Position numbers and translations under genes: made by a program. The notes beneath the pieces were generated by a model. That model worked only from the letters and a program-made list of their open reading frames with translations. It ran no database searches and had not been told where the DNA came from. Source: Escherichia phage W115. From it: a stretch of 64,000 bases of DNA. Below are positions 3,957-58,173 of this stretch, in pieces. The stretch lies in the sequence record ON286974; one strand, 5' to 3'. Each line of letters opens with the position of its first letter. Within the stretch, counting starts at the first letter, position 1.

Positions 3957-3985
3957 AAAAAGCCCCATCATTGATGGGGCAAAAT
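3957..3985. terminator. bidirectional rho-independent terminator between convergent uvsW.1 and uvsY.-2
   Basis: Hairpin gccccatca/tgatggggc flanked by A-run upstream and A/T-rich tract downstream. Confidence 0.6.
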
Positions 3986-4013
3986 AAACCAATTAAAATC
4001 GGTTATCAACAAA

Positions 4014-4190
4014 TTACATTAACAGCATTGTTTGCTCTACGAGTTGTTCTTGTTCTTCGCCGTTCGCATCTTCACTAATCGAACGTTCTGTTACTAGCTG
4101 TAAGCAGTAGCCAGTGTGAACAACGCCGTTTTCTGTCTGGACGGATAACGCATCCTCGACAGGTTGTTTACAACAAATACAGATTTTCAT
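4014..4190 (-). CDS. UvsY.-2-like small Cys-containing protein (58 aa)
   Basis: Unlisted sub-60-aa ORF MKICICCKQPVEDALSVQTENGVVHTGYCLQ... directly upstream of uvsY. Confidence 0.45.
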   Translation of the reverse strand: MKICICCKQPVEDALSVQTENGVVHTGYCLQLVTERSISEDANGEEQEQLVEQTMLLM

Positions 4191-4211
4191 AAAAATTCCT
4201 CCTGCATGTAT

Positions 4212-4619
4212 TTAGCGACCAGATTCCAGCATACGCAATTCTATAGCATTCTTGATCGCAAAGCCACGAGATTTAACGATATCAAGTGCGCGACCAGCGA
4301 AATCCATTACCATCTGGTAATATGCAATTTTCGTATCAAGCGGTAAGATCTCGTCGTCTGCTGCCATGACAACTTTCAATTCTGATTTCTCATATTCAGC
4401 ACGACACCAGTCATCACTACGGTTAGTGTAAAAGTCAAGACGATTTTTCATAGCCTTTTTCTTTTTAGCCTCAAGAGCAATCGTCTCTCTTTTCGCCTCG
4501 CTGTAAATCCTTAACCACTTTGAGTATACTACCGGATTATTCAGCGCCTCCCATTGCAACTTAGTCGCATCGATCTTCATGTCAGCTTCTAATTGTTCTT
4601 TCAAATCGTTTAGGTCCAT
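4212..4619 (-). CDS. uvsY: UvsY recombination mediator
   Basis: 135 aa; clear similarity to T4 UvsY (LQWEALNN..YSKWL, KSRGFAIK). Confidence 0.85.
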   Translation of the reverse strand: MDLNDLKEQLEADMKIDATKLQWEALNNPVVYSKWLRIYSEAKRETIALEAKKKKAMKNRLDFYTNRSDDWCRAEYEKSELKVVMAADDEILPLDTKIAYYQMVMDFAGRALDIVKSRGFAIKNAIELRMLESGR

Positions 4620-4666
4620 AATATCCCCTTATTCACACTAAGACCTATATCATATCACACACAAAA

Positions 4667-5053
4667 TCACTTTGCAAGTCTTATGCGTAGTTGTTCAAGA
4701 TCATCTGGGTTATCTATTACTGAAAAGTAGATTGATACTATGATTGAGTTATCGTCGTACTGCGGAGTTACTTCTACTGTCAGGTTTCGGACCCGTGGTT
4801 CATAGTTTCGGATCGCCTCATTGATGTTTTTTGATAAGGTATCCACCGTCAGTGGGTTCATGTTCTCAAACAGTGATTTATTGAGATCGCATCCAAACAG
4901 TGGATCAAATGGACGAGATCCCTTGCGAGTAGTCACGATCAGTAGAATAGAATCTTTAACCGCTTTAATCCCTATGTTCTTTTTAACGTCGTTATTCCAC
5001 GATCTGGATATATTGAGATCCAAATCAGTATACATCTGATTAATAGTTGCCAT
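4667..5053 (-). CDS. 25: baseplate wedge protein gp25
   Basis: Similarity to T4 gp25 (TTRKGSRPFDP.FGCDL, RNYEPR, FSVIDNPDD); start re-assigned to ATG at 5053 with GAGG RBS. Confidence 0.85.
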   Translation of the reverse strand: MATINQMYTDLDLNISRSWNNDVKKNIGIKAVKDSILLIVTTRKGSRPFDPLFGCDLNKSLFENMNPLTVDTLSKNINEAIRNYEPRVRNLTVEVTPQYDDNSIIVSIYFSVIDNPDDLEQLRIRLAK

Positions 5054-5061
5054 GTTATACC

Positions 5062-5691
5062 TCAAAGAATTTTAAGGAAACTGGATAGACCTGATAATGA
5101 ATATACACCAGATTCCCCGCATTCGCACTTGATCGGTACTGCCAGCGTGATTTGATTTCTTGTTAGCTCGTCGATCACTTCTTCCACTTTATCCGTGGTA
5201 AGCATATCCAGCACGCGGTCAAAGTCCTGTGCGTTCAGGTCGTCTATATTGAATTGCTGATCGCCGATCACGATATATTCGATACATGCAATTACCATCT
5301 GCATAATATCAACATCTTCTGTAAACTTAGGTTGACGAAATTTGATTTTTACTTGCCCTAAGTCCAGAATATACGGTTCAACTTCTGGTATCTGTGTGCG
5401 TGAAACATCAAGAGAGTATACTTTCTCTTTATTGCATACACCACACACCCAAGTAGCATCAATTTTCATCTTATTGAGGCTGTGACACCATAAGAGAAGA
5501 AAAATATATTCTGCTTCGCATTTCTCTAGCTCTAATGCATTGATCCCCGTACATTCATGTATGATCTCTATAACAACCTCTGACAGCTTGCCAGTCTCTT
5601 TTGCTGCTACCAGTTTTTGAAATTCGCCGAAGGTGAAAGCACGGGCGTGTATCAACTTTTCGCCTAATTGGATCTTGAAAAAGTATTGCAT
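5062..5691 (-). CDS. 26: baseplate hub subunit gp26
   Basis: 209 aa; position upstream of gp25 and divergent from gp51 as in T4. Confidence 0.7.
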   Translation of the reverse strand: MQYFFKIQLGEKLIHARAFTFGEFQKLVAAKETGKLSEVVIEIIHECTGINALELEKCEAEYIFLLLWCHSLNKMKIDATWVCGVCNKEKVYSLDVSRTQIPEVEPYILDLGQVKIKFRQPKFTEDVDIMQMVIACIEYIVIGDQQFNIDDLNAQDFDRVLDMLTTDKVEEVIDELTRNQITLAVPIKCECGESGVYSLSGLSSFLKIL

Positions 5692-5733
5692 AATAAAACA
5701 CCCTTTATAAACACATAGAATTATTTAGTATTT

Positions 5734-5741
5734 TATAAATA
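5734..5741 (+). promoter_or_regulatory. T4-type late promoter box TATAAATA upstream of gene 51
   Basis: Exact TATAAATA about 21 nt upstream of the gp51 ATG. Confidence 0.45.
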
Positions 5742-5761
5742 CCCGAAAGGGGGATTATACC

Positions 5762-6532
5762 ATGAATATTATCCGAATAAAACTACCGGAAGGTGTGCAG
5801 AGATTTAAACCATTCACGGTAAAAGATTATAGAGATTTCCTTCTGGTGTCAACTGAAATTAAGATGAATCCAGAAGAAGAACAAACGATTCTTGATGAGC
5901 TATTAGAAGAAATATATCCAGACGTAGATCCGGCATTTCGTGAATATATTTTCCTGAATGTCTTTACTAGTTCAATTGGTAAAACTAAGATACCGCTTTG
6001 TTTTACTTGCCCGACTTGCAACAAAGAAAGAAGAATGTTGCTTAACTTACAGGTTGAAGCACTAAAACCAATCGTTCTAGAGGCCGCAGGGCTTAAAATA
6101 ACTTTCCGGTATGTTAAACCATCAACCGACTATGCAAAAACGTTTCTGGATGCGATAGAGCGTGTATCTGATGGTATTAATGACTATCTATGGACTGAAT
6201 TGCCGGAAGAAGTTAGAGAACAGGTTATCGATTCAATCTCATTTTCTGAATTTGAAGAAGTTGTTAAGCAGATGCACACAATCAAGATCGAACAAAAGAT
6301 ATCTTGTTGTGAGAGTCATGACCTGAAATACATAGGTCTTCTTCCATTATTCAAATTGTTGTTGAATCCAGATGAGTTATTCATCTTTTATCGAATAAAC
6401 CATCTATTGGCAAAATCAAATTATTCTATCAGTGATCTTATGGACATGTTACCCGTCGAGAGAAACATTGCACTGACACTGGTCGAGAAAGACGTAAAAG
6501 AGGCAAACAATGCAAAGAACGGGGTTTCCTAA
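5762..6532 (+). CDS. 51: baseplate hub assembly protein gp51
   Basis: 256 aa; first gene of the conserved 51-27-28-29-48-54 block; CxxC pairs. Confidence 0.65.
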   Translation: MNIIRIKLPEGVQRFKPFTVKDYRDFLLVSTEIKMNPEEEQTILDELLEEIYPDVDPAFREYIFLNVFTSSIGKTKIPLCFTCPTCNKERRMLLNLQVEALKPIVLEAAGLKITFRYVKPSTDYAKTFLDAIERVSDGINDYLWTELPEEVREQVIDSISFSEFEEVVKQMHTIKIEQKISCCESHDLKYIGLLPLFKLLLNPDELFIFYRINHLLAKSNYSISDLMDMLPVERNIALTLVEKDVKEANNAKNGVS

Positions 6533-27686: not shown

Positions 27687-28585
27687 TAAAAGTCTCCGTA
27701 GTTAACCTGAAAACATTCTACACCAATTGAGCGATACATGTCAACCACTTGATCACGGTCATCTACTGCCAAAACAACATGATATCGCGGTGCAATTTCA
27801 GAGAAGAAAATCTCTTTCTTTACTTCATGATCAGGACGACGATCATTAGTTTCACGTTGAAAGTGATCACTAGGTTCAATACCCTGTTCACGCAACCATT
27901 GCAGAGTATCTTCTTCGCAAACATCCTCACGACCTGAGCATGTAATGATACGATAGCCATTATCACGATACAGTTTAAGCATTTCGATCACTTGCGGACG
28001 TGGTTTATCTTCTTTGACCTTTGTCCAGTCAAACGGATGACGACCGCCCTTATCCGCTAATGTTCCATCAATATCAAAGATCACTGCCTTTGGCAGCATA
28101 GTATTCGGTTTGTATACTTCTTGACCCATATATTCCTGCATCAGATAAAATTGGTTGCGCAAATGAGAAAGTGGAATTGCTTTCTCGCCGCGATAGAAAT
28201 TACGTTTCTTTAGTGTCTCAAATGATTCATTGAACACTTGTTCAGTATACACCGCGTTAAATTCTTTTGCAAGTTCTTTGTAGAATACACGATGTTTTTC
28301 TTTCAGGTTGGTATCGGAGATAATGATACTCAATCCGCGTGATAGAGTCTCACGAGCAATCATTCTCTGAATAGACTCTACCAGCTTTTCTTTTTCCTTA
28401 GTATACTTGTATTTCAAATGTGAGTAAACACCAAACAACATAAGACGAAGATCATCACGATTCACATTACGATAATTACTAAACCGTTTACATGTTTCCA
28501 TCGCCCATGTAGTTTTACCGGACCCAGAACAACCAACGGTTAAAATCACTTCACATTTCGGCATTATTTCTCCTTCGGTTTGCAC
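27686..28585 (-). CDS. pseT: polynucleotide 5'-kinase / 3'-phosphatase
   Basis: 299 aa; Walker A GCSGSGKTT at N-terminus and HAD motif DIDGTLADK, as in T4 Pnk. Confidence 0.85.
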   Translation of the reverse strand: MQTEGEIMPKCEVILTVGCSGSGKTTWAMETCKRFSNYRNVNRDDLRLMLFGVYSHLKYKYTKEKEKLVESIQRMIARETLSRGLSIIISDTNLKEKHRVFYKELAKEFNAVYTEQVFNESFETLKKRNFYRGEKAIPLSHLRNQFYLMQEYMGQEVYKPNTMLPKAVIFDIDGTLADKGGRHPFDWTKVKEDKPRPQVIEMLKLYRDNGYRIITCSGREDVCEEDTLQWLREQGIEPSDHFQRETNDRRPDHEVKKEIFFSEIAPRYHVVLAVDDRDQVVDMYRSIGVECFQVNYGDF

Positions 28586-28896
28586 CGTTCCTCATTAAGT
28601 TCTTTTCGATAATAACACATGATCAACTTACTTTCAAGTGTATATCTCTTAATATCCGCAAGCCAGACTCTGAATTTTTGGGAGTCCTCCCACGACATAG
28701 AAACTCTAGGTTTACCGTCTATTGTATCAACTTTCAGGTCAATGTCAACTTTTTCTATTGGTGCTGGTAGTGGAGGATGTAATTTCGGTTCCTGTGAATA
28801 ATGGTCCATTGTACACGAAGAAAGCGCAAATACAATAGGCACAGCGAAGACATGGATTATGGCGGTCTGAAAATTCTTATGTGCTTTCTTAAACAT
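28564..28896 (-). CDS. o-spanin (outer-membrane lipoprotein, Rz1-like)
   Basis: Signal peptide MFKKAHKNFQTAIIHVFAVPIVFALSSC with lipobox, Pro-rich mature part; track ORF extends to 29016, start ambiguous. Confidence 0.5.
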   Translation of the reverse strand: MFKKAHKNFQTAIIHVFAVPIVFALSSCTMDHYSQEPKLHPPLPAPIEKVDIDLKVDTIDGKPRVSMSWEDSQKFRVWLADIKRYTLESKLIMCYYRKELNEERCKPKEK

Positions 28897-29012
28897 CCAG
28901 TGTATCACGAAAATTGAAAACACCATCAGGATAATAATGCTTGCACCTATCCACAGATAATCAACCAGATTAAAATTGCTTATCTGCTCTTGTGTAGACA
29001 ATATTTCTATGC

Positions 29013-29336
29013 TCATTTAGTAGCCTCCCTTAACTCTTCGGTAAACTCCTTAAATGAATCATTAAGCTGTTTCTCTACCAACTTGGGTTTTTGTGCTACT
29101 ACATAGCCTCGTGTAGCGTCTTTCATTGCTTTGTTTTGTTCTTCTGCAAACTTAGTTCTTATTCCGTACATCTCCTTTTGTAGTGAGTCTACGACCTTCA
29201 TCTTTTCATCGGTCTTTTTCTTATACTCTGTAAATTCCCGATTCAGTCGATCTACCTCCTTTTTATTTTCCCACCACATATTGCCACCTACCCCTAGCAA
29301 CACAGAGATGATAACAATGTATATCAGCTTTGACAT
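29013..29336 (-). CDS. i-spanin (inner-membrane, Rz-like)
   Basis: N-terminal TM helix MSKLIYIVIISVLLGV followed by Lys/Glu-rich coiled coil; adjacent to lipoprotein partner, position between rnlA and pseT as for T4 pseT.3/pseT.2. Confidence 0.55.
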   Translation of the reverse strand: MSKLIYIVIISVLLGVGGNMWWENKKEVDRLNREFTEYKKKTDEKMKVVDSLQKEMYGIRTKFAEEQNKAMKDATRGYVVAQKPKLVEKQLNDSFKEFTEELREATK

Positions 29337-29350
29337 ATTACCCCCAACGA

Positions 29351-29375
29351 CAAAAGGCGGGGAACTAGCCCCGCT
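29351..29375 (-). terminator. rho-independent terminator downstream of rnlA
   Basis: Hairpin gcgggg-aactag-ccccgc with U-run. Confidence 0.55.
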
Positions 29376-29380
29376 TATTA

Positions 29381-30550
29381 TTACCAATCAATCTTATCAG
29401 CCGGAATCAGTTTCTTATAATTCCGTAGATAGTAAGTTTTCATTGAATCCAGAATACGGTCATAATCAAGACCATCAAATGCAATCATCAGACACATGAA
29501 AATATATGCTTGTGCATCACCATGTTTACGTGATTCGATAGTCGCATTGGATGCATATGTCTTTCTGTCTTCTCCCGCGTGTGCGTTATAAAATTCTGTT
29601 GCTGTCGTGAAGGCATTGCGAAGAATAGACCTGAATGCCTCCTCGAATAGCTCGATTCGTTCCAGTGCTTCCGGTTCGCCTTCATATGCAGCACGCAAAT
29701 CATCGGTTTCGCTTTCTACGACATAGTAGATCAGATTATTAGGAAACATCGATGTGTTTTTAATGTTATGCACACCAATATACCATTCACTCTTCACTTT
29801 GAACATTTGACCGTCTTTAGTGCGTGCAACAATTCCTTCGATACCTTCTGCGGTCCGAACTTCATCAAGAATATTGCTAAAACGCGCTGAATCAACCTGT
29901 AACGCATTTACCAGATGAGGACGTAGGATTGCGTCAGCAAATAGCATTTGATGCGGTACGTACTCTCCTGTGACGTTATGGCGTACATTCAGAAGTGTTA
30001 GCGACGGTTCAGAATATTCTACAACAATTCGGTTGCTGGGTGCTGTATATTCAAAGTTGAAAGTATAATCAGACCCAATATCAGCAATCTTAGCGCGTAG
30101 ATCCGCATACTTCTCTGAATACAGAAGACCGTTTGCTCTCTCTGCCTGGCTTGAGTACAAGGCCGCTTTAGACTTCAACTGAACATAGCCGTTATCAATG
30201 TAGGTGCTTACTAGACTACCGTCCATTTTGTCCATGACCATTTCCACATCTTCCGGCTTAAAGCGAGCGCGATCATTCTCGCCTAAATTAAAAAACTTCT
30301 CCATAGGACGAGATGCAATGCGGACCGGACGACCTTTATCGTCAATTTCAAACATGATCCCGCGACACTCTAACGCATCTGGTTTATTCCACATTTCCGG
30401 TTTGCTCAAGTACAGATAACTAAAAATGCGCATACGGGTTTGCATCGCCGTAATTTCATCTTTGTAATAGAACGTATCAGATCCGTCACATAGTGCCATC
30501 AGATTTTTGAACAATGCTAAAACTTTTTTGTTGTTTTCTTTTGTTGACAT
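29381..30550 (-). CDS. rnlA: RNA ligase 1
   Basis: 389 aa; similarity to T4 Rnl1 (ALECRGIMFE, RPMEKFFNL, nucleotidyl-lysine motif KMDGSL). Confidence 0.85.
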   Translation of the reverse strand: MSTKENNKKVLALFKNLMALCDGSDTFYYKDEITAMQTRMRIFSYLYLSKPEMWNKPDALECRGIMFEIDDKGRPVRIASRPMEKFFNLGENDRARFKPEDVEMVMDKMDGSLVSTYIDNGYVQLKSKAALYSSQAERANGLLYSEKYADLRAKIADIGSDYTFNFEYTAPSNRIVVEYSEPSLTLLNVRHNVTGEYVPHQMLFADAILRPHLVNALQVDSARFSNILDEVRTAEGIEGIVARTKDGQMFKVKSEWYIGVHNIKNTSMFPNNLIYYVVESETDDLRAAYEGEPEALERIELFEEAFRSILRNAFTTATEFYNAHAGEDRKTYASNATIESRKHGDAQAYIFMCLMIAFDGLDYDRILDSMKTYYLRNYKKLIPADKIDW

Positions 30551-44546: not shown

Positions 44547-47500
44547 ATGGCAGATTTTTCTCAACATTTCAAGGCCACATTTGGCTTTGACGCTGGTAAT
44601 GAAAAGGTCGTCAATGTAGCATTGGCTGATAAGAATGTCAACACCGATGCGGTCAACGTTGAATTTTTCAATTACCATAATGGTATTACTCAGTATGACA
44701 CAACTCGCGGTTATGATCAATACGGAACTACAATCTATCAAAACCGTCCGTATTATGCAAAAGAAGATATCACAAAGCCAGCAGGTGATTTTGACCCGAC
44801 TAAATGGCAAGCACTGCGCACGGACCCACGTTGGGATTATATTGCAGCAACTTCCGGTGATACTCCTTTAAAGTCTGGTGATTATATCGCAGCAGATGGT
44901 CAATTTGCAAACTTGACTTTCTCTATGCCAACTAAACCAGCAGAGGGAGACACTATAACAGTAAAAGATATCGGTGGCAAGTGTGGTGTTAACGAATTAT
45001 CGTTCTTGAGTACAGGACATGAGTTTTACCATAATGGTAATGTATATAACAGAAAATGGTATTGCACTACCCCGTATGCAATGAACTATTTCATCTTTGT
45101 TCGGAATCGTTGGCATGTTTATCAGACAGGAACAGAGCCACGCGGTGTGTACGCACAGCCAGCGATTGATGCTATTCAAATGCAGAATGGTGATCAGGTA
45201 TTTCGTCGTAGTTCGTTGGGTAATATTACCTTAGTGCTTCCTAAGTTTGCCAACAATGGCGACATGATCCAGACTACAGACCTTGACGGATTAACCGCAA
45301 CCAACCACGTTACGGTTAAAGTTCATGAGCACGCAGAAGAACAATCAATTGGCACGTCCGGTCTAAAAGAGATTATCGGTAAGCGTAGCGGTCATGGTGT
45401 ATTCATCTTTGACAAGACGGAAAACTTATGGCGTTTGTGGGATGGTGATCAGTCTGTTCGTCTTAAACCGATCATCAATGACACTCGCTTGCAACCTAAT
45501 AGCTATGTTGCTGTATTTGGTGGTCGTGATGTTACTCTGACGCTGCCGACCAATGTCGAGCCGGGTGATCGTATTCAAGTTTCTATGCAGTATATGCACG
45601 GAAACCAGACTTGCCGAATCATTACCTCAGAAGAGGATACAAAAATCCTTATGCAGAAAAACATGGTTCAGTTTCCTAAGCGTAGCGAGTACCCATTCAA
45701 TGGGACCGATACATGGACTGGAGTGTCTGAATTGTCTTTCAACGCTGCAAATGATTATGTACCTTATCTGGAGTTCTCTTATTCAGAAGGTGATGATGGT
45801 AAGAAATACTGGTTGGTGGCACATGCTCACCCGATTGTAGAACGAGTAGATCCGACTCGTAAAGATCGTGTTGGTGTAATTGCACTGGCTACCCAGACTG
45901 AAACGAATAAAAACCATGAAGAGAATCCTAGCGACGAAGTTGCTGTAACACCAAAAATGCTGGCTAATAAAACAGCCAACGAAACTCGACGCGGTATTGC
46001 TCGCATTGCGACTCAAGCGGAAACGCATCAAGATACTGGTTCCAACTTCCTGGATGATGTTATCGTTACACCCAAAAAGTTAAATGACTGTGTTGCTACC
46101 GAAGCCCGTCGTGGTGTGATGGAAATTGCAACCCAGCACGAAACCAATGAAGGTTTAGACGATACCCGCGCTATTACTCCTAAGAAATTAGAAGAACGTC
46201 GCGCTTCCGAAGATCTAGCTGGTATTGCTGAAATTGTTCAGGCTGGCGGTAGTGCTGCCGCTCGACGTGGCGAAGCTGGTACAGGGATCTATAACATCAA
46301 CGACCATGCTAAAATTGTTACGCCACAAAACATCAACGAAGTCAAGGCGACCGAAACTTCCCGTGGTGTTGGCTATCTGGCAACTGACGCGGAAGTGCAA
46401 GGGGCTACAGAATCAACCCCGCAAGATGCTTTACTAATCACGACTCGCACGCTAACGAAACGTACTGCTACCGAATCGCGCACTGGTATCGCTGAAATTG
46501 CAACTCAGGAAGAAACAAACTTAGGTCAAAGTGATAACCATATCATCACGCCTAAAAAGCTGCATACTCGCCGCGCAACTGAAACTTTACATGGTTTAGC
46601 AGAAATTGCAACTCAACCGGAGTTTGACGCAGGTCGTGACGATTCTCGCATTTCTACCCCATTGAAGATTAAAACCTTCTTTGAGAATGCACAGCGTTTG
46701 AAAGTAGATCCGACTCAGGGGCTTAACCTTACTGGTGATTTGTGGCAAGGTATCATGATCAGCGGTCTGGATGCAACCGAAGACACAAAAGGTGTCGCTA
46801 AAGTTGCTACTACTCAGCTTACTGACGCTGGTCAAGATGATACTACAATCATCACGCCTAAAAAGCTGCAAGGCAAAAAGGCCACCGAAGGTAAAGAAGG
46901 CATTATCCGAGTTGGTACTCAAGCCGAAACCGTGGCTGGTATTATGGACAATGTAGCAATTTCTCCGAAGAACTTCAAATATGTTGTTCAGACAGAGGAT
47001 ACATGGAAAGCAACCGAAGCGCGTCGTGGATTCTTGAAAGTTGCTACTCAGGAAAACTGTTTTGTTGGTGATAATCTGCAAGGTTCTACTCAAGAACTAG
47101 GAAACTACCAGCATGACGGAATTGCTGTTACCCCTAAAGGATTAAACTACGCACTTGCTAATTTCTTACCTAAGATGGCAACCGCTCAGAATAGTTTGAA
47201 ATTGGGTAACGTAGAGGCCTCTAAATGGGCGCGTAGAGACATTGACCAGACCATTGAGAGCAATTACACGTTTAATAAAAACGTTAACGTGAAGGGCGAT
47301 TTAGAGTGCTTAAAATCTGGTTCCTTTGAAACTCTGTCTGTGACTAAGAACTCGACCGATGTTCCGAGTAATGGTCATCTGGTGTTGGGTGAGCGTGGAG
47401 TTGACGGTCACACCGGAATTACTCTGCATGGCACAACCGCATCGGAAGGCATGAAAAACTCTTGGTCTATTATCGTTGGTGGTACTGGAACAGCGCAAGT

Positions 47501-48287
47501 TGTTGATAGTGATGCTATCGCTTTCGGTAAAATCAATGATGGTGGAGTCGTTGAGCATTACGCCTTTGCTATGAAACACAATGGCGACGCGACAGCATAT
47601 AGAGACTTTATTGCAGGTCGTAACCTGTATGCGAAACAAGGCGGTTTATACATTGTTGACCAGTCTAATCCGGCAATGACTCGTTCCCCAGATGGTATGC
47701 TGAATATCGGTCACGGTGGAAGTGTTAACATCAAGGCAGGGCATCAAACGTTAACTACAGAGATCGCCGGACAGAAATATCAGATCGTACACGCAGGAAA
47801 CGCTGACGAAGTTCTTAACCGTCAGTTTGTTAAGAATGCTGGCGATACAATGGTCGGTAAGCTGACTATGGATAATGCGCCTATTGTTTCTGTTAAGCAT
47901 GAAGCTAGCGCGGCAACCGCTCCGGCAATCGGTAACATCGGTTTCTGGAATATGCGAGTTACTACCCAGAACATCAAAGAAACTTATCCAGAGAAGAAAA
48001 ACGGTACTCTGATGCAATGGGGTACTGACGCGGACGGGCTTACCCAGCTTTGGTCCCCTGATGGTACTCATAAACATTATATCCGTTCCGGTACTGGTGG
48101 TCAATGGACCGCATGGGGTGAAATTTACACCAAACAGAATAAGCCTACCGCTCAGGAAATCGGGGCAGTAGTTGCAGAAGGTGGTTTAATGAACTCTATG
48201 ACGGTTCGTGATTGGATCAAAGTTGGTAATGTTAAAATCATCGCCAATAATCTGACTCGTACCGTAGACTTTATCTGGGAAGACTAA
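44547..48287 (+). CDS. 34: long tail fibre proximal subunit gp34
   Basis: 1246 aa; N-terminus similar to T4 gp34; repeated ATQ.E motifs. Confidence 0.85.
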   Translation: MADFSQHFKATFGFDAGNEKVVNVALADKNVNTDAVNVEFFNYHNGITQYDTTRGYDQYGTTIYQNRPYYAKEDITKPAGDFDPTKWQALRTDPRWDYIAATSGDTPLKSGDYIAADGQFANLTFSMPTKPAEGDTITVKDIGGKCGVNELSFLSTGHEFYHNGNVYNRKWYCTTPYAMNYFIFVRNRWHVYQTGTEPRGVYAQPAIDAIQMQNGDQVFRRSSLGNITLVLPKFANNGDMIQTTDLDGLTATNHVTVKVHEHAEEQSIGTSGLKEIIGKRSGHGVFIFDKTENLWRLWDGDQSVRLKPIINDTRLQPNSYVAVFGGRDVTLTLPTNVEPGDRIQVSMQYMHGNQTCRIITSEEDTKILMQKNMVQFPKRSEYPFNGTDTWTGVSELSFNAANDYVPYLEFSYSEGDDGKKYWLVAHAHPIVERVDPTRKDRVGVIALATQTETNKNHEENPSDEVAVTPKMLANKTANETRRGIARIATQAETHQDTGSNFLDDVIVTPKKLNDCVATEARRGVMEIATQHETNEGLDDTRAITPKKLEERRASEDLAGIAEIVQAGGSAAARRGEAGTGIYNINDHAKIVTPQNINEVKATETSRGVGYLATDAEVQGATESTPQDALLITTRTLTKRTATESRTGIAEIATQEETNLGQSDNHIITPKKLHTRRATETLHGLAEIATQPEFDAGRDDSRISTPLKIKTFFENAQRLKVDPTQGLNLTGDLWQGIMISGLDATEDTKGVAKVATTQLTDAGQDDTTIITPKKLQGKKATEGKEGIIRVGTQAETVAGIMDNVAISPKNFKYVVQTEDTWKATEARRGFLKVATQENCFVGDNLQGSTQELGNYQHDGIAVTPKGLNYALANFLPKMATAQNSLKLGNVEASKWARRDIDQTIESNYTFNKNVNVKGDLECLKSGSFETLSVTKNSTDVPSNGHLVLGERGVDGHTGITLHGTTASEGMKNSWSIIVGGTGTAQVVDSDAIAFGKINDGGVVEHYAFAMKHNGDATAYRDFIAGRNLYAKQGGLYIVDQSNPAMTRSPDGMLNIGHGGSVNIKAGHQTLTTEIAGQKYQIVHAGNADEVLNRQFVKNAGDTMVGKLTMDNAPIVSVKHEASAATAPAIGNIGFWNMRVTTQNIKETYPEKKNGTLMQWGTDADGLTQLWSPDGTHKHYIRSGTGGQWTAWGEIYTKQNKPTAQEIGAVVAEGGLMNSMTVRDWIKVGNVKIIANNLTRTVDFIWED

Positions 48288-48320: not shown

Positions 48321-49460
48321 ATGACACAAGATATAGAATTACGCAATACTGGAATTAGGTTTGCGCATTTCGACGAAGACTCTGCGACATTTACCAGCAT
48401 TTCAGAAAATAACTCTGTGATGTATAAGCTGGAAGTGCGCGGATCTAATGCGGATTCTACCAAACCAGCAAGGATTAGATTTAATGGAGTGGAGATCGTT
48501 GGCACTGGCTATGAAAATGGCCTAAATTTTAAAGTTCTTACTCCAACTGGACAACTACACGAAGAAAAGGTATTCTATGGTCGCGGTGCTGTTTTGGCAA
48601 TGCGTGATTATCTTTCTTTGCTGAAAGGTGACTATATCATTGCGATGGCAACGCATGGAGAATTGTTTGCAGATCCGATAAGTGATGTTGTATTTTCTAA
48701 GATGGGATCTGTATCATTCCCGAATCACATTTTGCTACAGCAAATGCCTCGTGTATCCTATGCAGCAATTTATTCTACTAAAATGGGTAAAATTGTGTGC
48801 GAAGGGATGCAAGCGACCAACGGGGAAGGACAAGATTCATCTATACAAATTGAGAAGGTTTATGATACTATAGATGATCTTGCTATAACAGGAACACCAC
48901 AACGATTTTTAGATTATCCGGTTGAGTATGTTAGCGAAGATGCCGAACATTTCGAGCTAATACAATGGCCTCATGATGAGACCAGCGCCCCACTTGAGGA
49001 TTTTAACATAAAGGCAGGTGACAAACTATCAATATCCTTTGAATTGTTCCGTGATAGTGCCGCAGCCGCAGCCAACGTAACAGCGCGTTTCTATCACAAC
49101 TACTTCACCGATGGACAATATCAAACTGGTGTTCGATACAATGCCAGCAAAAAAGACCAATGGGAAAAGTTTGAAGCCGTCTATACCGTACCGGAAGGAG
49201 TTGATAGTGTAGTAACTGGTTGTATCAGATATCCAACCAACTCCAATGAAGGTATTGTTAAAATTAGAAACATACTAATAACGCCGATCAGTGGAGTCGT
49301 CAAAACTACTGGTCCTACTTCATTTGGTGTTAATGGTGTTAGAACAACTCATATTCAGGATAACGGTGATTTTACTAACCCTGTAATGAGTCTTCTTAAA
49401 CTACCCAGAGATAATAAACACATCACATCCAACAACTTTAAAGAGTTCGATGTTGATTAA
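48321..49460 (+). CDS. 35: long tail fibre hinge protein gp35
   Basis: 379 aa; synteny; FGVNGVR motif. Confidence 0.7.
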   Translation: MTQDIELRNTGIRFAHFDEDSATFTSISENNSVMYKLEVRGSNADSTKPARIRFNGVEIVGTGYENGLNFKVLTPTGQLHEEKVFYGRGAVLAMRDYLSLLKGDYIIAMATHGELFADPISDVVFSKMGSVSFPNHILLQQMPRVSYAAIYSTKMGKIVCEGMQATNGEGQDSSIQIEKVYDTIDDLAITGTPQRFLDYPVEYVSEDAEHFELIQWPHDETSAPLEDFNIKAGDKLSISFELFRDSAAAAANVTARFYHNYFTDGQYQTGVRYNASKKDQWEKFEAVYTVPEGVDSVVTGCIRYPTNSNEGIVKIRNILITPISGVVKTTGPTSFGVNGVRTTHIQDNGDFTNPVMSLLKLPRDNKHITSNNFKEFDVD

Positions 49461-49470: not shown

Positions 49471-49500
49471 AAGCCGATCCATGTGGTCGGCTTTATTTTT
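49471..49500 (+). terminator. rho-independent terminator after gene 35
   Basis: Hairpin agccgatcc-atg-tggtcggct followed by T-run. Confidence 0.6.
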
Positions 49501-49620: not shown

Positions 49621-49628
49621 TATAAATA
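49621..49628 (+). promoter_or_regulatory. T4-type late promoter box TATAAATA upstream of gene 36
   Basis: Exact TATAAATA about 34 nt upstream of gp36 ATG. Confidence 0.5.
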
Positions 49629-49661: not shown

Positions 49662-51152
49662 ATGGCAGATTTGAAATATGGATCTACTGTAGGTGGATCG
49701 CCCATTTGGACGCAAGGAAACTTGACGATCCAGCCAGCGGGGGATCAGCTTTTCTACAAAGGTCATAAAATCTATACCGCTTTTGATAGACCTTCGGCTA
49801 CCGATTTTGATGCTGTTAGTGCATCCGAAGGTGGCACATTTCAAAAGCAAGTTCATTTCGAGGAAGGTTTAAGCGTAGGTAGCGCATCGGCTGGAGAAAC
49901 CAAAAAGAATGGTATCTTTAAAGGGCAGAGTGACGCTGCTAATTTTGACGGCGTAAGCTGGGGTTTGCATTCATGGAAGTCAATCGGCTTTGTTAATGCC
50001 CGTGATGGCGTTATCATGGCGTATATTGACACCACAACGGGCGAATTTAAGTCTAAAGGGACTATCGAAGGGACAACCATTAAAGATACAGGTCAACGCG
50101 TCTATAGCCCTGTTAATAAACCAACGAATAATGATTTGGATTTAGTTTCCCGTCGCGGTGATACTCTCACAGGAACATATAATTTAAACACTGTCACTGT
50201 TAAACTATCGGTTGATTCGAAATTAATTGCAAGGGAACGTGATTTAATTAATTTTGATGCGACTAAGATCTATTATGGTAACGTTCTTGATACGTTGGTC
50301 TTCCGAAGTAAAGATGAGCCTACCATTTTTGTTAATGGCAAAGAAGGTCGTTTTTATCACACCAACAATAAACCAACTAAAGCCGATGTTGGACTAGGTA
50401 ATGTCACCAATGATGCACAGGTTAAACGTGCTGGTGATATTATGGAAGGTAACTTGCAAGCGCCTAGAATGTTGGCGACAAACGATCCTGCTGGTCCTAA
50501 TGAATTGGTTCGTTTGAGCTACTTTGAGAGAAAATCAATGGTAGCAAATCCAACCATCATTGGAAACGTTGATTGGAACACTCTTATTAATCGCGGTATC
50601 TATCGTGTGGAAAATGCTGGGTCGGGTACTAATAAACCGTCTGATAGCTATTATAACGGCGTTTTGATGGTATATCGCCCAGAAGATGCGGTCGGTACTC
50701 GTCGAATTGTTCAGGTGTATTATCCTGAATCTATTGACCATCCGATGTGCTGGCGTTCGTGTTCTAATGAATCATGGACTGCATGGAACTATGTAGATCA
50801 CCGTAAATTAGCCGATATTCGCTATGTTAACGTAACTGGCGATACCATGACAGGACCGTTAACTGTTCCGGCTGCAAATGGCGTTAGAACAGCTAAAACT
50901 AACTATAACGGGGATAACTGTTATGCGGCGTTAAGCGGTGCTGATGGTACTGCTATGATTCACCGCATTAGTGATATTAAAGGGACCGAAAAGCTGGGGA
51001 TCACCCACGACTCAAAGGTCGTGTTTTTCCGTTCTAGAAACAATACTCAAACCGTGGACCGCTATCAGCTTTATCATGAAGGTAATAAACCTACTCCGGC
51101 TGATGTTGGAGCGGTTCCACTTAATGCGGTGATTGATTTTGGTACTTTCTAA
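49662..51152 (+). CDS. 36: long tail fibre distal connector gp36 (enlarged)
   Basis: 496 aa; N-terminus MADLKYGSTVGGSPIWTQGN like T4 gp36 but more than twice as long. Confidence 0.7.
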   Translation: MADLKYGSTVGGSPIWTQGNLTIQPAGDQLFYKGHKIYTAFDRPSATDFDAVSASEGGTFQKQVHFEEGLSVGSASAGETKKNGIFKGQSDAANFDGVSWGLHSWKSIGFVNARDGVIMAYIDTTTGEFKSKGTIEGTTIKDTGQRVYSPVNKPTNNDLDLVSRRGDTLTGTYNLNTVTVKLSVDSKLIARERDLINFDATKIYYGNVLDTLVFRSKDEPTIFVNGKEGRFYHTNNKPTKADVGLGNVTNDAQVKRAGDIMEGNLQAPRMLATNDPAGPNELVRLSYFERKSMVANPTIIGNVDWNTLINRGIYRVENAGSGTNKPSDSYYNGVLMVYRPEDAVGTRRIVQVYYPESIDHPMCWRSCSNESWTAWNYVDHRKLADIRYVNVTGDTMTGPLTVPAANGVRTAKTNYNGDNCYAALSGADGTAMIHRISDIKGTEKLGITHDSKVVFFRSRNNTQTVDRYQLYHEGNKPTPADVGAVPLNAVIDFGTF

Positions 51153-51222: not shown

Positions 51223-54138
51223 ATGGCAGATTTAAGCAGAATCCAATTTAAACGCACTAGCACTAAAGGTCGTAAACCGGATGCTAGTACGATGAATCCG
51301 GGGGAATTGGCAATCAACCTTGCGGATCAATATCTTCTTACTAAAAATGATTCCGGTGATATTATCAATTTAAGTTGTCCTCCGGTGTATGACCGCGATG
51401 TTACAATGGCGGGTAAGGTTAAAGGTAATAATTATATCTTAGGTAAAACCGCCAACTATCTGGAAGATCAGACAGCGCGAGATCTTAACTATTTTGGTGC
51501 TTTCCGTACCAATGGTCTTGATGGTTTTCTCGAACTCACGCTAAACGTTCCTCATTCTTCTGGTGTTCAGCATGGTCGAGGATTTACTTTCCAGTATGGA
51601 CACACAGGAAACCGTGTAGAAACTTATGGTTATAATAAAGAAGGACAAAAAGCATTTAGTTATAAAATGTATCACGAAGGTGATAAACCAACTCCAGGAG
51701 AATTGAACGTCTATAGCAAACAAGAAATTGACAGAATGTTTATTAAAAACGTTAAAATGTCTGTTCCTTCCGGTGACGCAACTCGTGGTTACTTTAAGAT
51801 CGCGACCGCAATGATTCCGCAGAATGGTCGAATGGCATTTTTACGGATTTACGGCGGAAACGGATATAATGTTAACTCCTACGATCAGGTGGATTTCCTT
51901 GAAATTGTGATTCGTGGTGGTAATAATAACCCTAAAGGTGTTAGTATTGCTGCATATCGTCGTAATTCTTTGAACGTCCATGAAGTATTTGCAATTAATA
52001 CTTCCGGTGATAACTATGACATTTATGTTAACTATGGTCGTTACACCGATAACGTTATTGTAGAGTTTGGAAAAACTGTTGATGTTGCATTGACTGTTCA
52101 TGATGTTCCTGAATTTTCGGCGACTAAACCAGCAACCGGAACTAAATTTGATGCTCGTGTTATTACAATGTTCAACACCGAAAACAAAGCCGGAACGTTG
52201 ATGTTTGATAATAACGGTCAAGGAACGTATGATATTATCAGCTTGAATAACTCGACTGATAGCAATAAAAAATATCTTCGTAAGTTTCGTAGCAAATCCG
52301 CAGAAACAATATGGCATGAAGTTGTCGAGGGTAGCGTATATCGTTTAGCTACGGGCGTTACTGATCAGTCAGACCAACTAAAAATTGATTTTAATGGGGT
52401 TACTGTAAATCGTCTTTTCGTTAAGGGAAATAATGCTATCAGAATGGAGCGTAGAGACGGACAAAGTAATTACCTAGAATTTTATGATTATCGTTCCGGT
52501 GCTAACCGCCGTCAAGGTTATCTAGGATATGGTGACGGTACTACTAACACCGTACAGTTAGTAAATGAATTAACGGAAGGTACTAACTCATTACGACTGG
52601 ATGATACTGGTCAGGTTACGCTGTCAGTAGGCAAAACAAAAATTGTATATACCAACGGACAATATTATTCCGCTAACTCTGATGCATTCCGTATGATTTA
52701 CGGCAATTATGGCGCATTCTGGCGAAATGATGGTCAAAAAGTATATTTGTTGTCTACTGCCGAAAATGATCGTTTTGGTGGATGGAACGGCAACCGACCA
52801 TTCATTTACGACCTGTCAACTGGTAAAGTTACTTTAGGTGGCGACGGTAACGAAGGCGCATTAGTTCTCGAAAGAGATAGCCGTGCGGCTAGATTTGCAG
52901 GTGACATTTATGTCGGTAACGGGATGTTAACCTTTGATGCTGGGCGATTAAATTCTCGTGATTACTTCCGATTTAATCATTGGGGCGATAGCAATAACGC
53001 TCGTGATAACATCTTACAGCTTGACGATAGCAAGGGTGCTCATTTTACCACTGAACGTACTTTAGCAACTGGTGCAATTAAAACTAAATTCTTCGGTGAT
53101 TTGGAATCTGCTGGTCAAATTAAATGGGGTAAAGGGACCGCCACATCTACGTTTAATATACGTGTGTGGGGTGCTGATGCTCGTAAACAGGTGTTTGAGT
53201 GTGCTGATGAAAGCGGTTGGCATTGGTATACCCAACGTCCGGGCGGTCCAGATACTTCTGCAATTGAGTTTGTCATCAATGGTACTGTTAAACCTCAAGC
53301 AATCCACACTGGCGGTAATATCACGCTTAACGGTGCTGATATTGAATTTAAACGAAGCGGTAACAAGCATTTATGGTTTAGAGATCCGAACGGCTTAGAG
53401 TTGGGTCTGTTGTACTGCGATGATGCTGGTGTTATGCGTATTCGTGGGGAGAAATCGACCGAAGTATGGAAATTCTCAGCAAAACAGATTCATCTGGAAA
53501 CTGGTACTGCCGGAAATGGTGTAGGCTTGCTTCGTGGTGCTGTAGGTGGTGGCGCATGGACTCAATGGCGAGATCGTGGCACTGGCTTGCAGGTTGATTG
53601 TCAGCAATCTGAAAACTCAGCGCATAACGTATGGAGAGCTACGCATCAAGGAAAATACCACATCGCGGCAATGGGTGTACACGTTCCTGGTGGTACTATC
53701 GGAAATGCTATGGTGCGTATTCACGTACACGATGCAACTTTTGACTTTAGCGCAACTGGTGATTTCCAAGCAGGTCGTAACGGTAATTTTAACGATGTGT
53801 ACATTCGTTCTGATGCTCGCCTGAAAATCAATAAGGAAGAGTATAAAGAGAATGCTACCGATAAAGTTAATCGCTTGACGGTATACACCTATGACAAGGT
53901 TAAATCTTTAAGTGACCGTACTGTCATTGCTCATGAAGTTGGTATTATTGCTCAGGATCTTGAGAAAGAATTGCCAGAAGCAGTAAAAACCTCGAAGATC
54001 GGCGACGGTGATACACCAGAAGAGATCTTAACAATTTCTAACTCTGCTGTCAACGCTCTTTTAATTAAGGCGTTTCAGGAAATGAGCGAAGAATTGAAAG
54101 CCGTTAAAGCTGAACTAGCGGAACTTAAAAAGAATTAA
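51223..54138 (+). CDS. 37: long tail fibre distal subunit gp37 with C-terminal intramolecular chaperone domain
   Basis: 971 aa; N-terminus like T4 gp37; C-terminal 107 aa carry SDARLKINKEEY...GIIAQDLEKELPEAV...coiled-coil typical of the self-cleaving chaperone (peptidase S74-type) domain. Confidence 0.8.
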   Translation: MADLSRIQFKRTSTKGRKPDASTMNPGELAINLADQYLLTKNDSGDIINLSCPPVYDRDVTMAGKVKGNNYILGKTANYLEDQTARDLNYFGAFRTNGLDGFLELTLNVPHSSGVQHGRGFTFQYGHTGNRVETYGYNKEGQKAFSYKMYHEGDKPTPGELNVYSKQEIDRMFIKNVKMSVPSGDATRGYFKIATAMIPQNGRMAFLRIYGGNGYNVNSYDQVDFLEIVIRGGNNNPKGVSIAAYRRNSLNVHEVFAINTSGDNYDIYVNYGRYTDNVIVEFGKTVDVALTVHDVPEFSATKPATGTKFDARVITMFNTENKAGTLMFDNNGQGTYDIISLNNSTDSNKKYLRKFRSKSAETIWHEVVEGSVYRLATGVTDQSDQLKIDFNGVTVNRLFVKGNNAIRMERRDGQSNYLEFYDYRSGANRRQGYLGYGDGTTNTVQLVNELTEGTNSLRLDDTGQVTLSVGKTKIVYTNGQYYSANSDAFRMIYGNYGAFWRNDGQKVYLLSTAENDRFGGWNGNRPFIYDLSTGKVTLGGDGNEGALVLERDSRAARFAGDIYVGNGMLTFDAGRLNSRDYFRFNHWGDSNNARDNILQLDDSKGAHFTTERTLATGAIKTKFFGDLESAGQIKWGKGTATSTFNIRVWGADARKQVFECADESGWHWYTQRPGGPDTSAIEFVINGTVKPQAIHTGGNITLNGADIEFKRSGNKHLWFRDPNGLELGLLYCDDAGVMRIRGEKSTEVWKFSAKQIHLETGTAGNGVGLLRGAVGGGAWTQWRDRGTGLQVDCQQSENSAHNVWRATHQGKYHIAAMGVHVPGGTIGNAMVRIHVHDATFDFSATGDFQAGRNGNFNDVYIRSDARLKINKEEYKENATDKVNRLTVYTYDKVKSLSDRTVIAHEVGIIAQDLEKELPEAVKTSKIGDGDTPEEILTISNSAVNALLIKAFQEMSEELKAVKAELAELKKN

Positions 54139-54180
54139 GGAAAAATCCCAGGGAAGGGAAACTACTAAGGAGAAACGGCT

Positions 54181-54420
54181 ATGGTCTATAATATCGTCAT
54201 TGGTGCTTTGTCTAGTTTCGGAATGAAACTATTATCAAAGTTAATTAGTGAAAAGATGCTCACTAAAATTTTCTTCTACTGCGCTCGTCGTCTTGCGGCC
54301 TATACCAATACGCCAATTGATGATCGTTTTGTGGAAGAACTTTATAAGGAGTTTAATAAAGATCAATCAGAAGATAGCAACGAGCAAGATAAACCTAGTG
54401 ATAGTCAAGTACCTAAATAA
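54181..54420 (+). CDS. hypothetical small protein (79 aa) at the position of gene 38
   Basis: Strong TAAGGAG RBS; hydrophobic N-terminus, acidic C-terminus. Confidence 0.45.
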   Translation: MVYNIVIGALSSFGMKLLSKLISEKMLTKIFFYCARRLAAYTNTPIDDRFVEELYKEFNKDQSEDSNEQDKPSDSQVPK

Positions 54421-54453: not shown

Positions 54454-55110
54454 ATGCAAGTTTCTGAAAAAGAGAAAGACTTTGCTATCTCAAATGTCCT
54501 GCGCGCTATTTTCACAACTAAAAGCACGGAGTTGCTCGTACTTCGTGTTTTTGCTGCCGTCGTGTTGTCCATATTAGCATTTGTCGTTTATAGTAAAAAC
54601 GAGTTATTTGCGCTTTATAAAGAGACTCGTTATGAGACTTATGCTCACGTTCTCCAGGTAGAGAAAGACCGCAATTTTGATAATGCAGCACAGGAGCAGT
54701 TACAGATAGTTCATGTGTCGGCTGATGCCGATTTTTCTGCTGTTTTTAGTTTTCGTCCGAAAAACCTAAACTATTTTGTTGATTTGGTGGCATATGAAGG
54801 AAAGCTACCGCACACAATCGATGAAAAAAATTTAGGCGGATTCCCTATCAATAAAACGAGTGAAGAATATCGTAGGCATCTTTTAGGTAAATCATATTTT
54901 ACCGATAAAGATTTCCAGTATATTCCATCAAGAGAAAAGAAATTAGAGAATATCGATATAGGTTTCATGTATTCTTGTCCTATATTCAATCTCGATAATG
55001 TCTATTCTGGTAGTATCGCCATTGCATGGAGGAATAAACCAGATATTGACATTGAGAATTTAGATACTCTTTGCAATCAATCTGCCAGAATCCTCGGAAG
55101 GATTAGATAA
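54454..55110 (+). CDS. t: holin
   Basis: 218 aa; single N-terminal TM and periplasmic domain with strong similarity to T4 holin T (LQIVHVSADADFSAVFSFRPKNLNYFVDLVAYEGKLP, ARILGR). Confidence 0.9.
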   Translation: MQVSEKEKDFAISNVLRAIFTTKSTELLVLRVFAAVVLSILAFVVYSKNELFALYKETRYETYAHVLQVEKDRNFDNAAQEQLQIVHVSADADFSAVFSFRPKNLNYFVDLVAYEGKLPHTIDEKNLGGFPINKTSEEYRRHLLGKSYFTDKDFQYIPSREKKLENIDIGFMYSCPIFNLDNVYSGSIAIAWRNKPDIDIENLDTLCNQSARILGRIR

Positions 55111-57414: not shown

Positions 57415-58173
57415 TTACTTGCAAACGTATTGATCTACATCAATTGCGCCACCGAATGTAGGATGACGTTTTTCAAATCGAATAGTTCCGTCGTTTGGTT
57501 CGAAAACGGAGTATTCATATAGATCTTTCTTGCCAACATTCTTATAAAACCCGCCTTTAGTCATAACGGTTTCTTGTACGTTTGCTTTGTGTACGTTGTA
57601 TTCATCAATGTATACAAAATCAACCATCTTCCCATTTTTAATGGTTACTTTAAGATCCCCTGGCTGGTTTCCATATTTTGCATACAGTGGAGCCTCTTTA
57701 ATTTTGGTGGAAATTCCATCTTTCATACTCCACTCATAACGAACGGTGCATTGATAGGTAAAAGTTTCAACCTTCGGTTCTTCCACCACTTTTTCTTCCT
57801 GTTTCGGTTGTTCTTCGTCAACCTTCACGGAAGTCTCTGAATCGCTTTCTGACGCGGTCTCTTCTTTAGGTAATACATTCATCAAGTTTTGGATTTGAGC
57901 GTTGTATACAGCCTCCAGTGGCTGAATCTGCCCGATATTGATCATTGTATCACGAACAGTTTTATTCCAGTTGCGTTGCTCTTGTTTCAGAGACGGATCA
58001 ATCTTAACAGCTTTAACATATACTTCATGAAGTTTAGAGTCCAGTGCGGAGATAGACTCATTAGAACAAATAAACTTCTCTGATTTGGTAGTAGCTTTAG
58101 CGCAATCAAAGGACGCAGCGTTAGCACCGAAAGCAGTAGCAGAAAGAACGATAGCAGCGATAATGTTTTTCAT
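57415..58173 (-). CDS. secreted protein with LprI-like (DUF1311) N-terminal domain
   Basis: 252 aa; signal peptide MKNIIAAIVLSATAFGANA; FDCAKATTKSEKFICSNESISALDSKLHEVY ... QEQRNW pattern of DUF1311; acidic linker; Cys-flanked beta-rich C-terminal domain. Confidence 0.5.
   Translation of the reverse strand: MKNIIAAIVLSATAFGANAASFDCAKATTKSEKFICSNESISALDSKLHEVYVKAVKIDPSLKQEQRNWNKTVRDTMINIGQIQPLEAVYNAQIQNLMNVLPKEETASESDSETSVKVDEEQPKQEEKVVEEPKVETFTYQCTVRYEWSMKDGISTKIKEAPLYAKYGNQPGDLKVTIKNGKMVDFVYIDEYNVHKANVQETVMTKGGFYKNVGKKDLYEYSVFEPNDGTIRFEKRHPTFGGAIDVDQYVCK

Follow-up and report, generated by a model that had tools for sequence, protein, structure and literature searches.

How is the tip of a long tail fibre completed when the gene following gene 37 is not gene 38? 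In T4, gp37 carries a C-terminal needle and receptor-binding domain (gp37_C) without an intramolecular chaperone (IMC), and the needle is folded by gp57A and by gp38, a non-structural chaperone that is unrelated to the adhesin of the same name. In the DNA analyzed here, a stretch of 64 kb from Escherichia phage W115 (referred to as the window), gp37 has an IMC and no gp37_C, and no such chaperone gene comes after gene 37. The original prediction for this locus was that the tip is assembled and recognizes its receptor in a way different from T4, with the implication that the IMC stands in for gp38.

An RB49-like fibre and lysis locus

Judged from its matches, the window comes from an RB49-like coliphage (Krischvirus, Straboviridae) and represents its long-tail-fibre and lysis end. 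The phage collection contains no identical record; the closest relative is FL37, with 98.1% identity over 24 kb and 95.8% over the part from gp37 to t, and matches to the region were also obtained from RB49 and some 60 further Krischvirus records. The gene order, 34-35-36-37-small ORF-t, is that of RB49 and other Krischvirus loci, which likewise have a 496-aa gp36, a 79-aa ORF, a gp37 with a C-terminal IMC, and a gene 38 displaced far off. At the protein level, gp34, gp35, gp36, and t are 98–99.8% identical to their RB49 counterparts, while the identity of gp37 is 77.9%. The locus shares with T4 a four-protein fibre (gp34–37), late promoters before genes 34 and 36, and holin t downstream. The T4-type late promoter motif 5′ of gene 36 probably starts a 36-37-orf79-t late transcript, and a terminator-like hairpin (49471–49493) lies 3′ of gene 35. 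The motif occurs five times in the window against 5.7 expected, no excess over chance, so that promoter calls are positional only. Features of the locus are listed in Table 1.

Table 1. Features of the distal fibre and lysis genes (positions in the window)
Feature	Position	Strand	Basis or remark
T4-type late promoter motif TATAAATA	49621..49628	+	34 nt 5′ of gene 36; position only
gp36, proximal part of distal half-fibre, 496 aa	49662..51152	+	99.8% identical to RB49 gp36
gp37 precursor, distal long-tail-fibre subunit, 971 aa	51223..54138	+	phrog_1699 "long tail fiber protein distal subunit", E 1.1e-182
Gp34_trimer-like knob domain in gp37 shaft, residues 456–529	52588..52809	+	Pfam PF21446, E 3.4e-26
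DVYIR, residues 858–862, predicted new C-terminus of mature gp37 and docking strand for gp38 N-terminal domain	53794..53808	+	Published junction
IMC (Peptidase_S74), residues 863–971 and stop codon, ending in a heptad-like helix	53809..54138	+	Pfam and S16 alignment
Predicted catalytic dyad of gp37, Ser863 and Lys868 codons	53809–53811, 53824–53826	+	Alignment
Shine-Dalgarno AAGGAG of 79-aa ORF	54167..54172	+	8 nt before ATG
79-aa ORF (RB49 "Dc5"/RB49p252)	54181..54420	+	phrog_402/Pfam PF26925 (Phage_PM2_Gpl); predicted three helices and acidic tail
Holin t	54454..55110	+	Pfam Phage_holin_T, E 1.7e-61; 98.2% identical to RB49 t

The C-terminal chaperone of gp37

The C-terminus of gp37 had been predicted to be a self-cleaving IMC of the K1F and T5 type, and a profile search bears this out: Peptidase_S74 (PF13884) matches residues 863–922 with an E value of 1.2e-11, far beyond chance, its score of 45.1 bits exceeding the curated cut-off of 22. 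Over its last 113 residues, gp37 can be aligned throughout with S16 gp37 (PDB 6f45_A; E 9.9e-6), and a weaker match is found to the MYRF autoprocessing domain (7dc3). The IMC extends to the final residue of gp37, where ELKAVKAELAELKKN is matched to the terminal helix of S16 gp37 in the alignment. The piece starting at SDARLK is present with its serine at residue 863 (nt 53809), and its length is 109 aa instead of the 107 aa originally given. The gp37_C needle and receptor-binding domain (PF12604) gives no match in gp37, in a search that does find PF12604 in the Felixounavirus fibre.

Ser863 and Lys868 fall in invariant columns and are aligned with Ser911/Lys916 of K1F endoNF and with S-DRRI-K of S16. 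Presumably, Ser911/Lys916 is the catalytic dyad of the K1F protein, as Schulz et al. reportedly found in 2010. The K1F endosialidase and T5 pb1 resemble gp37 also in that the domain is of the same Pfam family, is located at the C-terminus, and has a helical end. However, fibres of the T5 and K1F types bind the receptor directly, the mature protein's own tip being an enzyme or a receptor binder, whereas cleavage in gp37 would create a dock for a separate adhesin.

The junction in gp37, DVYIR^SDARLKI, is the same as that published for the fPS phages, DVYIR^SDGRLKI; in these T2-like phages, the DVYIR^SDxRLKI junction was aligned to the S16 cleavage site, DLNVS^SDRRIKK (PMC7917993). Directly upstream of the cleavage site, gp37 and S16 gp37 have low similarity except in the last few residues. 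In S16 and T2/T6, too, gp37 has at its C-terminus an IMC of about 110 aa that contains an S-D-x-R-x-K motif and cleaves itself off, and cleavage of gp37 would be expected in RB49-type phages by homology to S16 and T2.

The 79-aa ORF before holin t

The slot occupied by gene 38 in other phages was predicted to hold only a 79-aa ORF with a strong ribosome-binding site, followed by holin t. This is indeed the arrangement found: gene 37 is followed by a 42-nt spacer, the ORF preceded by AAGGAG, and then t. Searches of Pfam, PHROGs, and NCBIfam linked the ORF to no chaperone, Tfa, or GP38 family; those of Pfam and NCBIfam were uninformative, the Pfam set searched being one without PF26925. This family (Phage_PM2_Gpl) is precomputed on homologues 59–95% identical to the ORF, and an hhalign comparison of the ORF family profile with PM2 gp l gave a probability of 86.6% (E 4.5e-6) over 41 columns. 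An AlphaFold2 model made with 10 homologues consists of three helices with a mean pLDDT of 59.8, too poor for a fold search. The N-terminal helix is a borderline membrane span (KD19 1.3–2.1 across homologues), so that no topology is claimed. A literature search on PF26925 or phrog_402 found no paper.

In all RB49-related loci the ORF adjoins holin t, and it travels with t whichever distal fibre or adhesin precedes. For example, contig L014, whose holin t is 85% identical to that of the window, has the order gp37 with IMC, gp38, small ORF, and t. In contig L012, a different 524-aa fibre without an IMC is followed by the same pair of small ORF and t, and in contig L018 a 925-aa gp37 with an IMC precedes the small ORF, with no gp38. 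A related-locus search with the family alignment of the ORF returned mostly Felixounavirus, L018 and L048 being the only new contexts. Judged from these comparisons, the 79-aa ORF and gp38 are unrelated; as the ORF coexists with an adjacent gp38 in L014, it is no replacement for it. Given its membership in the family of gp l, a lysis protein of phage PM2, the ORF is probably an accessory lysis gene that goes with holin t, and not a fibre gene.

A more specific role can be proposed tentatively: the small ORF (phrog_402/PF26925) may be a lysis accessory of the PM2 gp l type that works together with the T holin, the phage also encoding a canonical pair of spanins. PM2 gp l (P18), a corticovirus lysis factor needed for outer-membrane disruption, shares the PF26925 family with the ORF, and in both cases the gene is small and late, closes a structural operon, and has a holin-type gene beside it. 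On the other hand, PM2 gp l is a 51-aa protein that has only about 20% identity to the ORF and lacks both the beginning of the N-terminal helix and the acidic tail, and PM2 has no spanin pair, in contrast to this phage. If true, this role would give a first function to a family that occurs in Krischvirus, Felixounavirus, 7-11-like, and Vibrio phages.

It is improbable, though, that the ORF is a small fibre-specific factor, either a chaperone or a helper in cleavage or docking, that took the slot of gene 38. In Krischvirus as well as in Felixounavirus, it comes directly after the distal fibre gene and has a strong ribosome-binding site, which would suit such a factor. Homologues also lie at most about 1 kb from tail or fibre genes in 7-11-like phages, where the homologue sits in the neck and tail module, and in Lahexavirus phages, and in Vibrio phage 1.003.O a convergent tailspike gene with an S74 domain is about 750 bp away. 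However, the Vibrio phage homologue directly follows a GH108 endolysin, and the tip of the upstream fibre in Felixounavirus is of the T4 type (gp37_C) and has no IMC. Moreover, the ORF stays between gp38 and t in L014 and follows a fibre without an IMC in L012, and the match of its family to PM2 gp l points away from the fibre.

Tip adhesin and shaft of the fibre

As predicted, no gp38 gene follows gene 37, and the rest of the 64-kb window has none either: with RB49 and FL37 gp38 as queries, tblastn gave a best E value of 2.6, and a glycine-rich-motif screen of all ORFs of at least 150 aa gave nothing. An RB49p262-like ORF of 252 aa (57415–58173, minus strand), a candidate for a displaced gp38 by its size, has neither glycine-rich motifs nor a tblastn match and was rejected.

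Relatives of this phage carry the gene at a distant site. In RB49 (gene 38 at 45367–46143), FL37 ("adhesin protein" at 81526–82311), and more than 20 other relatives checked, about 58 kb separate the gp38 gene from gene 37, and a gp38 of at least 80% identity occurs in at least 24 of the 30 best matches to the gp37 locus. The RB49 and FL37 proteins both have Pfam GP38 (E about 1e-70) and Gp38_N matches and are 50% identical to S16 gp38, with W7 and W20 invariant. They also resemble the S16 and T2/T6 proteins in domain layout, with an N-terminal attachment domain that contains Trp and a receptor domain of the polyglycine-sandwich type. In S16, T2, and T6, gene 38 is located directly between 37 and t, whereas the Krischvirus loci have the PM2-gp-l-like ORF before t. 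A gp57A chaperone is found in RB49. A displaced gene 38 with a small ORF in its place was reported for RB49 in a passage of Trojet (2011; PMC3157838) that cites Desplats (2002), and in the FL37 paper gp38 is not near the holin (PMC12032242). In this genus, gene 38 lies near rI among accessory genes, beyond the part covered by the window; by synteny with the relatives, that of the present genome would be found about 45 kb past the window end.

The distal tip is thus most probably (roughly 90%) of the T2/T6/S16 type, with IMC-assisted trimerisation, autocleavage, and docking of a gp38 monomer encoded by a distant gene 38. In the 971-aa precursor, the C-terminal IMC of 109 residues would drive trimerisation and folding of the preceding shaft and would remove itself by a Ser863/Lys868-mediated cut between Arg862 and Ser863. 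The DVYIR strand would thereby be exposed as the new C-terminus of gp37, and one gp38 adhesin monomer would dock on it via the conserved Trp residues of its N-terminal domain. By homology and from the literature, receptor specificity would be carried by gp38, which may recognize OmpA or certain O antigens in RB49-like phages. RB49 gp37 has indeed been described as having a self-cleaving chaperone, after which the gp38 monomer attaches, and RB49 host-range mutants map to gp38 E230K (Efimov, 2022; PMC9569957). In fibres of the T2/T6/S16 type, IMC cleavage exposes the gp38 docking site (Efimov, 2022; PMC7917993), so that cleavage and gp38 are not alternatives there. T4 itself represents the minority arrangement in the account of Efimov (2022) and in the relevant passage of Trojet (2011).

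The implied claim that the IMC stands in for gp38 is not supported, a gp38 homologue being encoded elsewhere in the genome of every sequenced close relative (RB49 and FL37 among them). A fibre in which the IMC replaces the function of gp38 and the mature gp37 tip binds the receptor like T5 pb1 or the K1F endosialidase would agree with the absence of gp38 beside gp37 and in the window, with direct receptor binding by IMC-bearing fibres of those phages, with gp37 being the most diverged protein of the locus, and with the self-contained distal tip (Gp10_C) lacking an adjacent gp38 in L012, but is hardly credible against a full-length gp38 adhesin at the syntenic distant site in every sequenced Krischvirus checked, a conserved DVYIR docking strand, conserved Trp prongs of gp38, and host-range mutations in RB49 gp38. 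As predicted, the tip is built differently from that of T4; that it belongs to an unusual fibre without gp38 is not supported.

The T2/T6/S16-type tip is common and differs from T4 yet is not new, as the displacement of gene 38 was reported in 2011 (Trojet) and the model of cleavage followed by gp38 attachment was stated for RB49 in 2022. An IMC-bearing gp37, a displaced gene 38, and a small ORF in its slot are a documented trait of RB49-like phages, real but ordinary. For annotation and host-range engineering in Krischvirus, the receptor-binding adhesin has to be looked for at a distance of about 58 kb from the fibre operon, and a missing gp38 beside gp37 should not be taken as a sign of a gp38-less fibre.

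RB49 gp37 has 979 aa against 971 aa here, and the diverged blocks cover approximately residues 361–480 and 681–800. Because gp37 alone among the proteins of the locus has diverged strongly (78% identity to RB49), it may itself contribute to host range beside gp38. A weaker alternative reading is that the two diverged blocks are lateral binding sites that add to gp38; if true, such sites might go some way towards explaining a puzzling report, the recognition of multiple O antigens by RB49-like phages. The knob domain of the shaft matches PDB structures of T4 gp34 (4uxe and 5nxf).

In S16, gp37 has 749 aa and gp36 221 aa. The expectation that gp36 is more than twice the T4 size was correct, with 496 aa here against about 220 aa in T4 (Trojet, 2011; PMC3157838). 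It appears to be built of two modules, each closing in YHxxNKPT (residues 232 and 471).

The C-terminal chaperone of gp37

The ORF map of the window matches the layout originally predicted, including the strong RBS of a 79-aa ORF and holin t behind it (Table). Gene order is identical in RB49. Escherichia phage FL37 is 95.8% identical to the window over gp37-t and 98.1% over 24 kb, and RB49, Phi1, ECD7 and many further Krischvirus records show 84-92% identity over gp37-t.

Table. Features of the window and of related genomes and contigs
Source	Feature	Coordinates	Strand	Size	Remarks
Window	spanin pair, pseT.3/pseT.2-like	28564-29387	-		canonical two-component
Window	TATAAATA motif	44511			late promoter candidate, 29-34 nt upstream of gene 34
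Window	gp34	44547-48287		1246 aa	ORF map
Window	gp35	48321-49460		379 aa	ORF map
Window	TATAAATA motif	49621			late promoter candidate, 29-34 nt upstream of gene 36
Window	gp36	49662-51152	+	496 aa	ORF map
Window	gp37	51223-54138	+	971 aa	ORF map
Window	small ORF	54181-54420	+	79 aa	AAGGAG at 54167-54172, 8 nt before ATG
Window	holin t	54454-55110			Pfam Phage_holin_T, E 1.7e-61
RB49	gene 38	45367-46143	-		original annotation "similar to T2 and RB69 gp38 adhesin"
FL37	"adhesin protein" (gp38)	81526-82311			where synteny predicts, ~57.7 kb beyond gene 37 start
Contig L014	small ORF	1248-1478			gp37 (S74) - gp38 (265 aa, GP38 + Gp38_N) - small ORF - t; t 85% identical to the window's
Contig L012	small ORF	3399-3617			gp36 (501 aa) - 524-aa fibre with Gp10_C tip, without S74 - small ORF - t
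Contig L018	small ORF	4001-4219			gp37 (925 aa, S74) - small ORF - t; gp38 not adjacent

As had been proposed, the C-terminus of gp37 carries a Peptidase_S74 ("chaperone of endosialidase") domain, found by Pfam at residues 863-922 (E 1.2e-11, 45.1 bits; curated cut-off 22 bits). The Ser codon of SDARLK, at nt 53809, encodes residue 863, which makes the C-terminal piece 109 residues long and not 107. The 113 C-terminal residues of gp37 can be aligned from end to end with gp37 of Salmonella phage S16 (PDB 6F45; E 9.9e-6); the MYRF autoprocessing domain (7dc3) and a further phage fibre (8jov) match less well. When the window, RB49 and S16 gp37 are aligned with the K1F endosialidase and a Vibrio phage tailspike that carries S74, the columns of Ser863 and Lys868 are invariant. 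Counted along the K1F sequence, they correspond to Ser911 and Lys916, the pair reported as the catalytic dyad of the endosialidase chaperone (Schulz et al. 2010). Judged by sequence, the intramolecular chaperone (IMC) of gp37, about 90-98% identical to that of RB49, is genuine. The cleavage site of S16 gp37, DLNVS^SDRRIKK, has been aligned to DVYIR^SDGRLKI of T2-like phages, in which DVYIR is the docking strand for the gp38 N-terminal domain (Salem et al. 2021, PMC7917993). The window junction, DVYIR|SDARLKI, is the same as the T2-like one.

Gene 38 and the fibre tip

No gp38 was detected in the 64-kb window by tblastn with the RB49 and FL37 proteins (best E 2.6), and the glycine-rich pattern of the adhesin is absent from all window ORFs of at least 150 aa; the predicted lack of gp38 after gp37, where the 79-aa ORF lies instead, therefore holds. 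The RB49 and FL37 gp38 both contain Pfam GP38 (E about 1e-70) and Gp38_N (E about 1e-18), and S16 gp38 is 50% identical to each, with N-terminal W7 and W20 invariant. At 80% identity or more, gp38 is found by tblastn in 47 phage records; of the 30 records that best match the gp37 locus, at least 24 are among them. By synteny, the gp38 gene of the window phage would sit about 45 kb past the window end, displaced to a distant site and not missing. The FL37 gene has been reported to lie away from the holin (FL37 paper, PMC12032242), and host-range mutants of RB49 map to gp38 E230K (Efimov et al., PMC9569957).

By homology with S16 and T2, gp37 precursors would trimerise with the aid of the C-terminal IMC and probably also of gp57A, a general fibre chaperone encoded in RB49. 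The chain would then be cut between Arg862 and Ser863 by Ser863/Lys868, the 109-aa IMC would depart, and a single gp38 monomer would dock via Trp prongs on the exposed DVYIR tip and, from the literature on relatives, may bind OmpA or particular O antigens. In T4, the receptor is bound by the needle domain of gp37 and gp38 is a chaperone, whereas a Pfam search found no gp37_C domain in the window gp37. With gp37_C absent and the IMC present, the predicted difference from T4 stands, but not as something unusual: since most T-even-like phages combine an IMC with a gp38 adhesin, that interpretation is only partly supported. The window phage very probably has the usual T2/S16-type tip, with gene 38 displaced, as already published for RB49 and relatives: the distant gene 38 and the small ORF in its place were described for RB49 by Trojet et al. 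2011, and a self-cleaving chaperone on RB49 gp37, followed by attachment of a gp38 monomer, by Efimov et al. 2022.

In the FL37 locus (76000-90000, numbered locally), gp38 lies at 5527-6312, amid small accessory ORFs and following rI, which has the same orientation. Directly before the gp38 RBS, at ~5490-5512, is a GC hairpin that resembles a terminator and carries a T-run, and the sole consensus late promoter on this strand is TATAAATA at 2939-2946, 2.6 kb upstream, before rI. In the window, this motif is no more frequent than chance predicts, so the promoter assignments for genes 34 and 36, made from position only, are weak. A terminator-like hairpin with a 9-bp stem follows gene 35, and no terminator-like site was found between 37, the small ORF and t.

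Shaft proteins

The window gp36 is 99.8% identical to RB49 gp36 and, as originally predicted, more than twice T4 size, with 496 aa versus 221 aa in S16 and about 220 aa in T4 (Trojet 2011, PMC3157838). A YHxxNKPT motif is found at residues 232 and 471 of gp36 and 150 of gp37, at apparent module ends, suggesting one additional shaft module compared with T4/S16 gp36. PHROGs places gp36 with the long "hinge connector" proteins found in other T4-like phages outside the T-even group; a long gp36 is a known trait of the genus. Identity to RB49 is 98-99.8% for gp34, gp35, gp36 and t and 77.9% for gp37, in which residues ~361-480 and ~681-800 form diverged blocks (45-65% identity). Such mosaicism suggests that the fibre shaft itself, and not just the gp38 adhesin, has undergone recombination or diversifying selection.

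The small ORF before holin t

The 79-aa ORF corresponds to RB49p252/"Dc5", a member of phrog_402 (function not annotated), and shares 95% identity with its RB49 counterpart, from which it differs by 6 synonymous and 4 non-synonymous codons. It is no replacement for gp38, because in three RB49-related metagenomic contigs it is paired with t irrespective of the preceding genes, and in L014 it stands beside gp38 itself (Table). The 524-aa distal fibre of L012 (1722-3296; ERZ27235516 k99_9381) replaces gp37, with a Gp10_C-like end and no adjacent gp38; it represents a third distal-tip type within the same locus frame.

In Felixounavirus, homologues immediately follow a fibre that has a T4-type gp37_C tip and lacks an IMC; in Vibrio phage 1.003.O, the homologue comes directly after a GH108 endolysin; and in 7-11-like phages and Lahexavirus, homologues lie within the neck and tail module. 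Invariant residues in the first homologue set include F13, E24, F31-F32, A35, T42, T44 and D47-D48. Homologues are annotated as PF26925 "Phage_PM2_Gpl" (precomputed Pfam), and the family profile matches the PM2 lysis factor gp l, reported as P18 (Krupovic et al. 2007), by hhalign (86.6% probability, E 4.5e-6). The AlphaFold2 model is poor (pLDDT 59.8, three helices). Tentatively, and at somewhat less than even odds, the 79-aa ORF may encode an accessory lysis protein. Outer-membrane disruption is already served by a dedicated system in the window phage, the canonical spanin pair (pseT.3 and pseT.2 in RB49), so any lysis role of this ORF would be additional. The first spanin ORF has an N-terminal membrane helix and a coiled-coil-like region, and the next a lipobox-like FALSSC signal. 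What is modestly new is that the ORF is linked to the lysis family of PM2 gp l and is constantly paired with holin t.

In the Vibrio phage 1.003.O locus, a tailspike (3956-5899, minus strand) that begins with a P22-like Head_binding region and carries Peptidase_S74 at its C-terminus is convergent with the gp-l-like small ORF, ~750 bp apart.
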